Assembly (NCBI GenBank): GCA_047971245.1
Contig: JBKDZN010000249.1
Location: 1 to 59,045 of the forward strand
Direction of reading: 5' to 3'
Source: Acidimicrobiales bacterium
GTDB taxonomy: Bacteria; Actinomycetota; Acidimicrobiia; Acidimicrobiales; SZUA-35
Length of the DNA: 59,045 bases
Shown here piece by piece: positions 18,013-54,044 of the stretch. Every line of letters begins with the position of its first letter. Position 1 is the stretch's first letter. The notes beneath the pieces are model-generated. The model was not told where the DNA came from and ran no database searches. It saw only the letters and a list, made by a program, of their open reading frames with translations. Position numbers and translations under genes: made by a program.

Positions 18013-18648
18013 TCAGCTCCCGGGCTGGGGCGTGACCCGCAGGTAGGGGGTCTTGGTCTCGAAACCAGCCGGGAACAGCTCCTTGGCCTCCTCGTCGGAG
18101 AGGGCGGGTGAGACGATCACGTCGTCACCCTGCTCCCAGTTGACCGGCGTGGCCACCTTGTAGCCGTCGGTGAGCTGGAGCGAGTCGATGACCCGGAGGA
18201 TCTCGTTGAAGTTCCGGCCGGTCGACGCCGGGTAGGTGAGGGTGAGGCGCACCTTGTCGGCCGGATCGATGACGAACACCGAGCGGACGGTCAGGGTGTC
18301 ATCGGCGTTGGGGTGGATCATGTCGTAGAGGTTGGCCACCGTGCGGTCCGGGTCGCCGATGATCGGGAAGTTGACCGCGGTGCCCTGGGTCTCGGCGATG
18401 TCGTCGCTCCAGCGCCGGTGATCGTCGACCGGGTCGACGCTGAGGGCCAGGACCTTGGTGTTGCGGGCCGCGAACTCGTCGGCCAGCTTCGCGGTGTAGC
18501 CGAGCTCGGTGGTGCAGACGGGGGTGAAGTCCTTGGGGTGGGAGAACAACACGGCCCAACGGTCGGCCTTCCAGTCGTGGAAGCTGATCTCGCCCTCGGT
18601 GGTGGGGGCGGTGAAGTCAGGGGCGGTGTCGCCCAGTCGGATCGCCAT
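18013..18648 (-). CDS. 1-Cys peroxiredoxin (Prx6/LsfA-type)
   Basis: LFSHPKDFTPVCTTE, TVRSVF, YPASTGRNF, ATPVNW; AGGAAAGG RBS before ATG 18648. Confidence 0.95.
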   Translation of the reverse strand: MAIRLGDTAPDFTAPTTEGEISFHDWKADRWAVLFSHPKDFTPVCTTELGYTAKLADEFAARNTKVLALSVDPVDDHRRWSDDIAETQGTAVNFPIIGDPDRTVANLYDMIHPNADDTLTVRSVFVIDPADKVRLTLTYPASTGRNFNEILRVIDSLQLTDGYKVATPVNWEQGDDVIVSPALSDEEAKELFPAGFETKTPYLRVTPQPGS

Positions 18649-50482: not shown

Positions 50483-50555
50483 CCGGGCAGGCTAGCCTCC
50501 CCGGATACCGGCCGATCCGGGCCGACACACCGTCACCGATCCGGGAAGGGATGCC

Positions 50556-51158
50556 GTGAGCCGAAACCAAGCAGGACCGCCCCGCATCCGTCCGGACCGG
50601 CGGACGGTGATCGGGCTCGGGCTCGTGGTGGCCACCGCCTTCGGGTCGGTCGCCTGCGGGTCCGGGGCCGGCGAGGGCGCAGCCGGGACCGCCGCCGGCT
50701 CGGCGTCGTCGGTGTCGGCGACCATGGCCGACGACACACCCCCGGCCGAGCGGGCGTCGAGCCCGCTGCCGACCATCGACGTCACCGATGTGACCACCGG
50801 TGAGCCGGTCGACCTGGCCGGCCTCCTCCCCGCCGACCAGCCGGTGCTGGTGTGGATGTGGGCACCGCATTGAACGATCTGCCGGGCCGAGGCGCCCGGT
50901 CTCGAGCAGTTCGCTCGGGAGCACGACGATCGGGTCAGCGTGGTCGGGTTGGGAACCCAGGACGACCTGGACGCGGCACGCGAGTTCGTGGCCGCCGGGG
51001 GGATCACGTTCACCATGCTGTGGGACGGGACGTTCGCCTCCTGGGACGCCTTGGGGATCACCGGGCAGCCAGCCGCCATCCTCTACGACGGCGACGGCAC
51101 CGTGCTCGGCCAGTGGTCGGGCCCGCTCGACGAGAGCGCCGTCCTCGATCTGCTGTAG
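50556..51158 (+). CDS. TlpA/redoxin-family lipoprotein with selenocysteine (UxxC; TGA at 50871-50873)
   Basis: ORFs 50556..50873 and 50940..51158 share a frame. Read-through gives PVLVWMWAPH-U-TICRAEAPGLEQF...VVGLGTQD...GITGQPAAILYDGDG, a full thioredoxin-like fold with cis-Pro (QP). RRTVI twin-Arg-like motif and SVAC lipobox. Confidence 0.85.
50874..50920 (+). promoter_or_regulatory. Candidate bacterial SECIS element
   Basis: Hairpin TCTCGAGC-AGTTC-GCTCGGGA (50900-50920) with a GU in the loop, loop ~34 nt after UGA. Alternative hairpin CCGGGC-CGAGGC-GCCCGG (50882-50899). Confidence 0.5.
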
Positions 51159-51167
51159 CGGCCCGGC

Positions 51168-52211
51168 TCAGGGGCGGATCAGGATCTTGACCTCGTCGGG
51201 CTGGCCGGCGAGGTCGTCGAAGGCCGCTTCGGCCTCCTCGAGGGGGCGCTCACCGGTGATCAGCCGGCCGAACCGTTCCGGTTCCTGGCTGAGGAGCCGG
51301 AGGGCGGTGGCGAAGTCGTGGTGGCGGTAGGCGAAGCTGGCGGCCAGCTTCACCTCGGTCACGGTGAGTTGGAGGGGCTCCACCTGGATGGTGTGGGGGC
51401 AGGCCCCGGCCAACACCACCTGGCTGTGGGGCGGGGCCTCGGCCACGATGGCCTGGACCACCGGGGCCCGGCCGACACATTCGAACACGGTCGACGGGTT
51501 CGGGTCTTTGTCGAGGAGGAGGGGCGAGATGGTGCTCGGGGTGTACCCGTGGGCCATCATCAGTTCGATCAGGGGCGTTCCCGGTTCGTGGACCGAGGTG
51601 GCCCCGACGGCCAGCGCCTTGTCACGTCGGCTGGGGGAGGGGTCGACGGCGATGATCGGTCCCCGCCCGGCCGATGCGTTCACCGCGATGATGCCCAACC
51701 CGATCGGGCCCGCCCCGACCACCACGATCGGGCCGTCCGGTGCGGCCATGGCGGCCGCGTGGGCGGCTACGGCCACCGGTTCGGCCAGGGCGGCCAGGCG
51801 GAGGTCGAGCCCCTCGGGCAGGACCATGGTGCGGACGGCGTCGACCGCCATCAGCTCGGCCAGGCCACCACCGTGGGTGGGGGAGAGCCCGATGGTCTCG
51901 GGACCCTCGGCCCCCATGGTGAACGGGATCGCGGTGACCAGGTCACCGGGCTTCACCGGCGCCGCCGACCCGGCCGGAACGTCCGGGCCGAGGGCGATCA
52001 CCTCGCCGGCGATCTCGTGGCCGGGGATGACCGGGGGCTGGGGTTCGTCCGGGGTGGCTGCGGCGGCGGCCAGGGACTCCTCCCGGAAGTGGAGGTCGCT
52101 CCCGCAGATACCGGTGGCGTAGGGGGCGACCAGGATCTGACCCGGTCCGGGCGTCGGTTCGGGGACGTCCTCGATGGCCATGGCCCCGGCTCGCATCACC
52201 ACTGCACGCAT
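51168..52211 (-). CDS. Zinc-binding (MDR) alcohol dehydrogenase
   Basis: GICGSDLH, GHE, VGAGPIG, FECVG; lacks the 4-Cys structural-zinc lobe. Confidence 0.9.
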   Translation of the reverse strand: MRAVVMRAGAMAIEDVPEPTPGPGQILVAPYATGICGSDLHFREESLAAAAATPDEPQPPVIPGHEIAGEVIALGPDVPAGSAAPVKPGDLVTAIPFTMGAEGPETIGLSPTHGGGLAELMAVDAVRTMVLPEGLDLRLAALAEPVAVAAHAAAMAAPDGPIVVVGAGPIGLGIIAVNASAGRGPIIAVDPSPSRRDKALAVGATSVHEPGTPLIELMMAHGYTPSTISPLLLDKDPNPSTVFECVGRAPVVQAIVAEAPPHSQVVLAGACPHTIQVEPLQLTVTEVKLAASFAYRHHDFATALRLLSQEPERFGRLITGERPLEEAEAAFDDLAGQPDEVKILIRP

Positions 52212-52333: not shown

Positions 52334-52756
52334 TTACACCCCGGTCACGCCGAGCTGGGTGGTGTGCACCCGGGCCACATTGTGGGCCATGGCCCGGGCC
52401 CGCTCGGTGGCCGGGCCCGACCATCCGTCGTTGAGGGTGGCGTCGAACAGCTTCAGCCACCGTTCGAAGTGGGCCGGCCGCAAAGGCGAGACGGTGTGCA
52501 CGGCGGCGTGACGACCGAACGGGTTGCCGTGGTAGCCGTCCAGATCGAGCAGGACCCGGGCCCAGAAGGCGGTGAGCTTGGGGATGTGGACGTCCCAGTC
52601 CACCTGGGCGACGTCGTTGAAGATGGGCCCGAGGAGCTCGTCGGTGTTGACGTCGCGATAGAAGCGGCGGACCATTTCGGCGATCTGATCGACCGAGTCG
52701 AGGTCGGGTCGGTTCAGGGTGGCCGGGGGCGCGGCGAGGTCGAGAGGCGCGGCCAT
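52334..52756 (-). CDS. Group III truncated hemoglobin (trHbP)
   Basis: MVRRFY..V..DELLGPIF, DWDVHIPKLTAFW, GNPFGRH, HFERWLKLF; AGGAAAGGA RBS before ATG 52756. Confidence 0.9.
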   Translation of the reverse strand: MAAPLDLAAPPATLNRPDLDSVDQIAEMVRRFYRDVNTDELLGPIFNDVAQVDWDVHIPKLTAFWARVLLDLDGYHGNPFGRHAAVHTVSPLRPAHFERWLKLFDATLNDGWSGPATERARAMAHNVARVHTTQLGVTGV

Positions 52757-52774
52757 GATGATGTCCTTTCCTGT

Positions 52775-52974
52775 GTGTCGTTCCGCCAGACGGTGTCGTT
52801 CCGCCAGACGGTGTCGTTCCGCCAGACGGTGTCGTTCCGCCAGACGGTGTCGTTCCGCCAGATGGTGTCGTTCCGCCAGATGGTGTCGTTCCGCCAGATG
52901 GTGTCGTTCCGCCAGATGGTGTCGTTCCGCCAGATGGTGTGTCGTCCGACCGGAGGGTGTCATCCCACCGGAGG
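52775..52974. repeat. 18-bp VNTR: 4 x GTGTCGTTCCGCCAGACG + 5 x GTGTCGTTCCGCCAGATG + 2 degenerate units
   Basis: Counted directly: 9 near-perfect units at 52775-52936, degenerate units at 52939-52974; no spacers. Confidence 0.97.
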
Positions 52975-53174
52975 TTCGACCCGTGTGGTGCGGCGGCGCC
53001 GGATATGGGGGAGGGCCGTCGACTCGGTGCGACACGCAACGTTCAGGCGATGTTGCTGACGCCTGCGCGTCATTCGTTGTCCACCTCCAAGAGTAGCCAC
53101 CCCTACCGGAGCCTGCCCATCCACGCCTAGTCTTGCAGTGTGCAACTGGATGTCCGGTCGTCGGGGGAAGGGCC

Positions 53175-54044
53175 ATGACCTCGGTCGAAGACGGTCTCCC
53201 CACCGGTTCCACCCCCCGGCCCGGTTCCGGTGGCCGGTCCCCAGCCGGAACGACGCCCCGCCCGATGTCACGGCTGCGGCAGGTGGCCGTGCCCACCGAG
53301 CACGGCGGGTGGAGCCTCACCGCCGAACCGGTGATCCTCGCCCTGCTGGTGGTGCCGTCCTGGTCGGGGTTGGCGCTGGGCCTGGCGGCGGTGATGGCCT
53401 TCCTGGCCCGGACCCCGATGAAGGTGGTGCTGGTCGACCGGTGGCGGCGGCGATGGCTGGACCGGACCCGGTTGGCCGCGGTGGTGGCCGCCGTCGAGGT
53501 GGCCGTGATCGTGATCCTGGCCGTCCTCGCCGCCAGCACAGCCGTCGACGGTCGGTTCTGGCTGCCGCTGGCGGCGGCGGTCCCGTTGGTGGCGGTGGAG
53601 GCGTGGTTCGACATGCGGTCCCGGAGCCGGCGACTCGTGCCCGAGTTGGCGGGCGCGGTCGGGATCTCGTCGGTGGCGGCGGCGATCGTCGTCGCCGGGG
53701 GCGGGTCGATGACCGTCGCGGCCGGTCTGTGGGCGGTGATGGCGGCCCGCGCCACGGCGGCCATCCCCTTCGCCCGGGTCCAGGTGGCGCGGGTGCACCA
53801 CCGCCCGGTCGAGCTGTGGACCAGCGACGTGGCCCAGCTCATGGCCGTGGCCGTGGCGGTGGCGGCCTGGACGGCAGGGGCAGTGCCGTTCGCGCCCGTG
53901 GTGGTGGTCGCGGCGATCGCCGTGGTCAACACCGTCTCGGTGCGGGGCCCGGTCCGGCCCGCGGTGGTGGTCGGCGTCCAGCAGACCGTCTACGGGCTGG
54001 TCACCGTGCTGGTCACCGCGGGGGCGATGGCGCTGGGGGCTTGA
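53175..54044 (+). CDS. YwiC-like integral membrane protein
   Basis: VPTEHGGW N-terminal motif (PxxHGxW), multiple TM helices, VVVGVQQ near the C-terminus. Confidence 0.8.
   Translation: MTSVEDGLPTGSTPRPGSGGRSPAGTTPRPMSRLRQVAVPTEHGGWSLTAEPVILALLVVPSWSGLALGLAAVMAFLARTPMKVVLVDRWRRRWLDRTRLAAVVAAVEVAVIVILAVLAASTAVDGRFWLPLAAAVPLVAVEAWFDMRSRSRRLVPELAGAVGISSVAAAIVVAGGGSMTVAAGLWAVMAARATAAIPFARVQVARVHHRPVELWTSDVAQLMAVAVAVAAWTAGAVPFAPVVVVAAIAVVNTVSVRGPVRPAVVVGVQQTVYGLVTVLVTAGAMALGA

Follow-up and report, generated by a model that had tools for sequence, protein, structure and literature searches.

UxxC selenoproteins and their nearest described relatives

Selenoproteins of the thioredoxin-like redoxin fold, in which selenocysteine (Sec, U) occupies the first position of a UxxC motif, have already been catalogued (PMC13188914, PMC1794560, PMC1088965), and according to the parts of these sources compared here, members with a TlpA-like fold have been predicted since 2004–2005. 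Here we describe a gene of this kind at positions 50556–51158 of the window, that is, the whole 59,045-nucleotide stretch of DNA analyzed, which is contig C249 (JBKDZN010000249.1) of the draft genome of an Acidimicrobiales bacterium (G000; 4.28 Mb, 309 contigs, 90.4% complete). The gene very probably encodes a lipid-anchored, TlpA-like Sec enzyme of 200 residues whose in-frame UGA is decoded through SelB and for which we propose a function as a reductase. The predicted protein shares with the catalogued UxxC redoxins the thioredoxin fold, Sec as the first residue of UxxC, the existence of homologues with cysteine (Cys forms), and an in-frame TGA followed by a downstream hairpin. It differs from them in its predicted lipoprotein anchor and its distribution in the class Acidimicrobiia, neither of which is mentioned in the catalogue passages and tables compared; the terms “lipoprotein”, “signal peptide”, and “Acidimicrob” have no occurrence in the article text of PMC13188914. 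Thus, as far as these portions of the sources go, UxxC selenoproteins are an already known kind, with which the WAPH-U-x-x-C clade containing the window protein was compared by description and not by sequence. For Actinomarina, another lineage of the Acidimicrobiia, a 2026 preprint reported the Sec machinery and about five predicted selenoproteins per genome; “TlpA” and “redoxin” are absent from its text.

Among the curated models, NCBIfam NF041054 (ResA-like WAxxUGC) is the only selenoprotein-specific one that the window protein matches, at 28.1 bits and hence below the cut-off of 300. Both are selenoproteins with a ResA-like fold and a W-A-x-x-U context, but the model has 354 positions compared to the 200 residues found here, and contains U-G-C where the window protein has U-T-I-C (UxxC). 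The clade of the window protein is thus left uncovered by the curated models. The DsbE (MPT53) and DsbF proteins of Mycobacterium tuberculosis are likewise actinobacterial, extracytoplasmic, and TlpA-like, with a W-x-P-W-C-x-x-C-x-x-E-A-P active-site region, but they contain Cys instead of Sec, and the attacking residue is preceded by a Trp that is replaced by His in the window protein (WAPH-U). Bacillus subtilis ResA and the Gram-negative CcmG/DsbE proteins have the fold, a membrane-tethered extracytoplasmic CxxC motif, and a Glu three residues past the second Cys in common with the window protein, whereas a ccdA-resB-resC neighborhood is lacking at the window gene and at the relatives examined. 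The cut-offs of the corresponding models are not reached either (DsbE, TIGR00385, 46.2 bits vs. 123.15; ResA, PRK03147, 32.2 bits vs. 170).

One gene with an in-frame TGA

With translation table 11, the list of open reading frames (ORFs) contains two pieces in the same frame, 50556..50873 (105 aa, GTG start) and 50940..51158 (72 aa), and the initial annotation of the window was right to suspect that ordinary ORF calling had split a gene. When TGA is read as U, the same interval yields a protein of 200 residues that ends at the TAG stop, with TGA as codon 106 in the context ...VLVWMWAPH-U-TIC-RAEAPG. The sequence, the ORF list, and this reading all agree in placing the TGA at the position of the nucleophilic Cys of the WAxxCxxC motif, as had been proposed. 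In Pfam, the read-through protein was assigned to Redoxin (PF08534, 45.1 bits vs. a cut-off of 26.6) and AhpC-TSA (PF00578, 45.0 bits vs. 26), and the match covers residues 67–184 on both sides of the TGA. Since these cut-offs are passed by a match spanning the TGA, the continuity of the frame is more than chance, in line with the proposed continuation of the coding frame to the TAG.

The half of the gene located 3' of the TGA is under purifying selection, with ratios of nonsynonymous to synonymous substitution rates (dN/dS) of 0.24, 0.13, 0.15, 0.13, 0.14, and 0.19 over the 94–99 downstream codons in six close pairs. Conservation extends along the entire length of the gene in its homologues, and in an alignment of 35 Sec and Cys forms the invariant positions include, beyond C109 and E112, the residues F144, D157, W163, P172, G181, and G189. 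The interval 50556–51158 is therefore one intact, conserved gene that has been selected as a Sec gene, and not two fragments.

Conservation of the TGA among relatives

A six-frame search of 60 relatives returned a match in every one of them. Exactly one TGA was present in each of the 45 matches in other genomes with an expectation value (E) of at most 6.3e-21 (33%–69% identity), and the next match below these 45 (G044) contains none. In the first set of loci compared (the window gene and 29 others), all 30 have their TGA at one shared alignment column, with the motif W-[FWS]-[AS]-P-[HFL]-U-x-x-C. This column also holds TGA in all TGA-bearing loci on public contigs (n = 10, mostly from metagenome-assembled genomes (MAGs) of the Acidimicrobiales, and leaving out an eleventh locus, a Planctomycetota match with 25% identity), in all TGA forms examined in further families of the same class (n = 12), and in all loci examined in two families outside the class but within the same phylum (n = 3). 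Overall, TGA is found in the same column in 55 of the 55 TGA-bearing loci examined (30 + 22 + 3). At least one TGA-bearing match with E ≤ 1e-15 was counted by hand in 26 genomes of a sample of 300 others of the class, with the column verified in 12. The comparison of homologues that the initial annotation had asked for thus found relatives with TGA at this column and conserved sequence downstream of it, in addition to Cys forms, and the assignment of these relatives to Acidimicrobiales MAGs agrees with the actinobacterial host that had been assumed.

The shared column in all 55 loci, which represent many genera, and the purifying selection on the downstream half, together with a fold that needs both halves and the Sec-specific hairpin and complete Sec machinery described below, make it barely credible that the TGA is a true stop (arising from a nonsense mutation, decay, or an assembly error), which would turn the locus into a pseudogene or a pair of unrelated short ORFs. 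Points in favor of this reading are the split of the frame under table 11, the predominance of TGA among the stops of the genome, and the fragmentation of the draft assembly into 309 contigs.

Sec machinery and the meaning of TGA

The genome carries a tRNA-Sec (69.1 bits vs. the Rfam cut-off of 47), which ARAGORN also classified as tRNA-SeC with the anticodon TCA. Genes for selA (325.7 bits) and selD (356.3 bits) score over their curated cut-offs, and selB directly follows selA on the same contig (270.6 bits vs. a cut-off of 242.25), so that the selABCD genes anticipated elsewhere in the genome were all found. A lack of Sec machinery combined with TGC or TGT in all relatives had been named as the outcome that would speak for a nonsense mutation or read error; instead, the machinery is present and the relatives carry TGA. 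The proposal that Sec takes the place of the attacking Cys in a TlpA-like motif is likewise upheld by the TGA column of the 55 loci, the WAPHCxxC motif of Cys forms, and the presence of the machinery.

In the genome, TGA is the stop of 1082 of 1334 long ORFs with high G+C content at third codon positions (81%), and it also terminates many of the homologues themselves. As TGA is a normal stop here, its recoding at codon 106 is site-specific and does not reflect a changed code. A search for SelA was positive in 34 of 36 genomes of the family, and a hand tally showed that a strong TGA form is accompanied by SelA in 34 of 34 cases; the same-family genomes without SelA (G017, G030) have stop-free matches only.

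These data also bear on whether the UGA might be read through as a residue other than Sec, for instance Trp, Cys, or Gly, be it by suppressor or near-cognate decoding or owing to a lineage-wide change of the code. The assignment of Sec to codon 106 comes from sequence and not from selenium measured in the protein, and the candidate Sec insertion sequence (SECIS) described below is unusually far from the UGA, both of which would be compatible with the insertion of another residue. Such decoding is nevertheless very unlikely given that TGA ends 81% of the long ORFs and many homologues, that the column aligns with Cys, the expected partner of Sec, in the Cys forms, and that the TGA form tracks the presence of SelA in a genome that carries tRNA-Sec.

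In-frame TGA codons were also observed in other genes of this genome. The selD gene (C244:4644-5561, minus strand; L010) itself encodes a selenoprotein, with TGA in SHGAG-U-SCK and a hairpin from +11, and an fdhA-like molybdopterin oxidoreductase (C229:11493-12767, plus strand) has TGA in CNRT-U-HAPS, which we take to be a formate dehydrogenase Sec context. A second molybdopterin ORF, on contig C70, contains one TGA and one TAA.

A candidate SECIS in the coding sequence

Two hairpins follow the UGA within the coding sequence (Table 1; positions are counted from the U of UGA). Hairpin 2 is likely the SECIS, and thus the predicted binding site of SelB, because it is specific to TGA forms, shows compensatory changes, and is retained at the cost of rare codons. 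It has a single register in every TGA form and a loop of the type RGUUY, in which G39, U40, and U41 are invariant. Among the 49 distinct TGA forms, 91.5% of the cells are paired, compared to 28%–41% in slid controls, whereas pairing in the eight Cys forms (42.9% of cells) is no better than in slid controls. Accordingly, a stable hairpin 2 is formed in 49 of the 49 distinct TGA forms vs. one of the eight Cys forms. Covariation was detected at the pairs 31:49, 33:47, 35:45, and 36:44; for instance, 35 forms have C-G and 13 have U-A at pair 33:47, and at pair 31:49 there are 24 forms with G-C and four with C-G. Two further pairs are changed on both sides in locus L046, and RNAalifold recovered hairpin 2 as the sole helix. 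Codon usage in the 3' arm is also unusual, with the Ala codon GCU in 47 of 49 forms vs. 3.9% of the Ala codons of the genome, and UUU in 22 of 49 forms vs. 2.3% genome-wide. A genome-wide search for the hairpin 2 core yielded four matches, of which only the one in the gene itself has an upstream in-frame TGA context. Thus, the sequence of hairpin 2 is not shared by the SECIS elements of this genome in general.

Hairpin 1 is stable in 48 of the 49 distinct TGA forms and in four of the eight Cys forms. In one fixed register it is 78.6% paired, but the register shifts between sequences, and the hairpin is partly a by-product of the codons for C-R-x-E-A-P in G+C-rich DNA. Because of the shifting register and its folding in four of eight Cys forms, we downgraded hairpin 1 as a SECIS candidate, although it was kept; a role as a spacer or helper is possible.

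SECIS elements of the bacterial fdhF/fdhA type are, like hairpin 2, stem-loops located in the coding sequence shortly past the UGA, with a G-U among the bases of the apical loop. In hairpin 2, the loop resembles the GGUCU loop in the SECIS of the genome's own fdhA-like gene (GUGGUC-GGUCU-GGCCAC, with G23-U24 in the loop). It differs from the fdhF/fdhA type in that the G-U is found at +39/+40, behind a second G+C-rich hairpin.

Several observations weigh against the identification of hairpin 2 as the SECIS or against Sec decoding more generally. The loop G39-U40 lies ~16 nt farther from the UGA than G23-U24 of the fdhA-like element, and the selD hairpin begins at +11, the position of hairpin 1, so that hairpin 1 may instead be the site bound by SelB. 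Hairpin 1 is also enriched in the TGA forms. The observed pairing of hairpin 2 was reached in none of 500 shuffles, but such shuffle controls overstate the significance because the related sequences are not independent. An Rfam scan of positions 50500–51200 at E ≤ 10 reported no SECIS family and only four unrelated matches below threshold. Finally, SelA was not found in G043, a genome of 92% completeness that nevertheless has a weak match (37.6 bits) with TGA.

A near-intact hairpin 2 (GUGGAGC-AGGUC-GCUCGAC, -8.9 kcal/mol) was observed in the Cys form L067 (G068:C2:253261-254409; WFWAPWCTPC), which may represent a recent conversion from Sec to Cys.

Predicted fold and membrane anchor

AlphaFold2, run on the family alignment, modeled residues 70–200 as a single beta-alpha thioredoxin-like domain with a predicted local distance difference test score (pLDDT) of 96–98, in which U106 directly precedes helix 107–122 (alpha1). 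The modeled thioredoxin-like fold needs sequence from both sides of the TGA. The closest solved structures are M. tuberculosis DsbE (MPT53, 1LU4) and DsbF (3IOS), with E values of 4.3e-16 and 4e-13, respectively, TM values to the target of 0.79 and 0.82, and 30% identity. They head the Foldseek matches, followed by B. subtilis ResA, with E values of 4e-13 to 1e-11 for the three, and this ranking agrees with a phmmer search against the PDB, in which 1LU4 was the best match and gave the E value quoted. P172 (in GQP) is invariant across the alignment and presumably corresponds to the cis-Pro loop of the thioredoxin fold. The likewise invariant E112, three residues past the second Cys, is in our view the counterpart of ResA Glu80, a residue that we take to tune a reductase.

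The N-terminus of the protein reads ...PDRRTVIGLGLVVATAFGSVAC, and both the RRTVI and the SVAC lipobox noted in the initial annotation are present. Using a PROSITE-like lipobox pattern ([LVI..][AS..][GAS]-C), we found a lipobox behind a hydrophobic segment in 27 of 30 loci, including the window protein. Two of the exceptions are cut at a contig end, and the third (L035) lacks a lipobox although its N-terminus contains a hydrophobic segment. The Cys-form homologues (...LAAC/LSAC) and the three Sec forms from outside the class share the lipobox, suggesting that the protein is exported and lipidated. The region between the lipobox and the domain varies in length and sequence across the alignment, with mean pLDDT values of 52–76 per 10-residue block.

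The possible export by the twin-arginine translocation (Tat) pathway, which had been considered in the initial annotation, is not supported by the sequences. The window protein reads D-R-R-T-V-I at the twin-arginine site, and no Tat-signal family was reported for it in the Pfam and NCBIfam scans. Among the signal regions of relatives, a loose RRx## pattern was found in nine of 27, but not one of the 27 contains the strict S/T-R-R-x-F/L-L/I/V pattern.

Table 1. Features of the predicted selenoprotein gene and its product, in window coordinates
Feature	Coordinates	Strand	Remarks
Complete selenoprotein gene	50556..51158	+	Starts with GTG; 200 codons, one of them Sec-UGA; ends with TAG at 51156-51158
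Putative Shine-Dalgarno-like purine run	50543..50551	+	GGGAAGGGA; 4 nt 5' of GTG; from sequence inspection
Predicted lipoprotein signal peptide, residues 1-34	50556..50657	+	RR-charged n-region, hydrophobic IGLGLVVATAF, lipobox S-V-A-C; codon of lipobox Cys34 at 50655-50657
Gly/Ala/Ser/Pro-rich low-complexity tether, residues 35-69	50658..50762	+	Predicted to join the lipid anchor to the domain
TlpA/ResA/DsbE-like thioredoxin-fold domain, residues 70-200	50763..51155	+	From pLDDT (96-98), Foldseek, and phmmer
Sec codon UGA (U106)	50871..50873	+	Position 1 of the UxxC redox motif; aligns with Cys of Cys-form homologues
Resolving Cys109 (TGC) of the UxxC motif	50880..50882	+	Invariant alignment column
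Hairpin 1 (+11 to +30)	50881..50900	+	G+C-rich stem; register varies among relatives
Hairpin 2, candidate SECIS (+31 to +49)	50901..50919	+	CUCGAGC-AGUUC-GCUCGGG

Proposed mechanism and direction of the redox reaction

In the mechanism we propose, the protein would be synthesized with a lipoprotein signal, exported, and anchored on the outer face of the cytoplasmic membrane through Cys34, the first residue of a mature form of 167 residues (~17 kDa), where a flexible tether of ~35 residues would carry the TlpA/ResA/DsbE-like thioredoxin-fold domain. During translation, UGA codon 106 would be read as Sec by SelB with Sec-tRNA(Sec), directed by hairpin 2 in the coding sequence and probably jointly by hairpin 1. 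Sec106, just ahead of helix alpha1, may then attack a substrate disulfide or another oxidized sulfur center, and the resulting selenenylsulfide would be resolved by Cys109. The oxidized Se-S form would have to be re-reduced, most likely via a membrane electron carrier of the CcdA/DsbD type.

We lean towards the reductase direction, although with limited confidence, because the attacking residue is Sec and the Glu known from ResA (E112) does not vary. Alternatively, the same exported selenoprotein could be an oxidant or isomerase that forms or shuffles disulfides in secreted proteins, as has been reported for M. tuberculosis DsbE/DsbF. These two proteins (1LU4 and 3IOS) are the nearest solved relatives by both sequence and fold, and the gene is located outside any ccdA-resB-resC operon. 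The oxidase activity reported for M. tuberculosis DsbE speaks against a reductase, as does the electron supply: the genome contains one DsbD_TM/CcdA gene, and this sole candidate is weak (32.3 bits vs. a cut-off of 27.1), lies on another contig, and is unlinked to the selenoprotein gene. The neighborhood is of little help here as well, since its conservation only in the closest relative (see below) indicates neither partner nor substrate. On the other hand, Sec-containing thioredoxins and glutaredoxins are reductants, and the window protein has Sec at the attacking position as do the catalogued UxxC members of these groups; invariant E112 matches the position of ResA Glu80, even if sequence alone does not fix a redox potential. 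On balance, we regard an oxidase or isomerase as a rather unlikely, but still serious, alternative to the proposed reductase.

Genomic neighborhood

The gene is flanked by an AraC-type regulator (HTH_18, DUF6597) in divergent orientation and by a Zn-dependent dehydrogenase (Zn-ADH) in convergent orientation, with SurE located farther upstream. Among the relatives examined, this gene order recurs only in the closest one, L021. A conserved resA-ccdA-resB operon was considered and rejected, as no ccdA, resB, or resC is found beside the gene or beside the relatives examined. The clustering of neighboring genes was noisy owing to the many shadow ORFs of high-GC DNA. In the flanks of a WFWAPHU subgroup (L024-L047), a protein of ~450 aa with a C-terminal Oxidored_molyb domain is encoded divergently upstream, and an SDR or a ferredoxin reductase-like flavoprotein (Pyr_redox_2/Reductase_C) is encoded downstream on the same strand; these flanks may reflect inherited synteny rather than a functional link.

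The genome encodes several stop-free Redoxin genes, and the window gene is its only Redoxin match with a TGA. The other, stop-free genes could serve cytochrome c maturation. One of them was observed within the window (18223–18633, minus strand, 54.7 bits, no internal stop).

Exchange of Sec and Cys

Cys forms are found among both database and genomic sequences. Six full-length database proteins (P0003-P0008, 45%–60% identical) have WAPHCPxC at the Sec column, two of which (P0003 and P0004) bear the name TlpA family protein disulfide reductase in a source, and eight stop-free genomic homologues also have Cys at this column. A further full-length protein from ENA (P0002, 54% identical) contains Arg (WAPH-R-AVC), and its C-terminal tail is divergent. 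This protein adjoins the Sec form L055 on the tree and could be the result of a TGA-to-CGA change or a decaying copy.

In a quick maximum-likelihood tree of 68 rows, calculated with the trait column masked, 50 of 52 Sec forms fall into one starred clade of 56 rows, whose remaining members are the Arg form and five Cys forms; the rows placed outermost are Cys forms. This topology fits one early change from Cys to Sec followed by several reversions. The order of the changes is not established by the tree, as its root depends on outgroups with long branches, and no more than three changes are required by the starred branches.

Many genomes (G058, G025, G021, G011, G012, G009, G008, G006, G022, and G024) contain two or three TGA-bearing paralogues each, with three TGA-bearing redoxin copies at 80–93 bits in G058. 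The Sec column was checked in one copy per genome, and the multiple copies suggest a lineage-specific expansion of Sec-containing TlpA-like proteins.

A possibly old clade of Sec lipoproteins

We tentatively suggest that the WAPH-U-x-x-C lipoproteins could form an old, not separately described Sec clade that extends over several families of the class as well as a minimum of two families from outside, that includes nested Cys forms and frequently has two or three Sec paralogues in one genome, and that has no curated model and is systematically mis-annotated as fragments. Its SECIS would consist of tandem hairpins, with the G-U loop ~16 nt farther from the UGA than in the fdhA-like element. If true, either SelB would be delivered in a different geometry or hairpin 1 would act as a spacer. 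The 49 distinct Sec forms and the nested Cys forms provide a natural data set for studying the constraints of a SECIS on coding sequence and the exchange of Sec and Cys.

For annotation, the locus should be corrected to one redox enzyme of 200 residues in place of fragments of 105 and 72 residues, and the same split probably recurs in many genomes of Acidimicrobiia and other actinobacteria, often in multiple copies. Although no new principle is revealed by this selenoprotein, it adds a predicted lipid-anchored surface protein to the small known selenoproteomes of the phylum, which otherwise consist mostly of FdhA and SelD. It also suggests that, in abundant environmental actinobacteria, thiol-redox chemistry outside the cytoplasm is influenced by the supply of selenium.

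Other features of the window

An 18-bp tandem repeat with about 10 copies (94%–99% matches) was observed at positions 52773–52960. It is located within the minus-strand ORF 52334..53932, where it reads as ERH(H/R)LA hexapeptides and is either coding or lies 5' of the true start. The C-terminal part of this ORF has a weak match to Bac_globin (21.9 bits vs. a cut-off of 21), and an ORF beside it (53133–54044, plus strand) encodes a YwiC-like membrane protein domain (72.6 bits).

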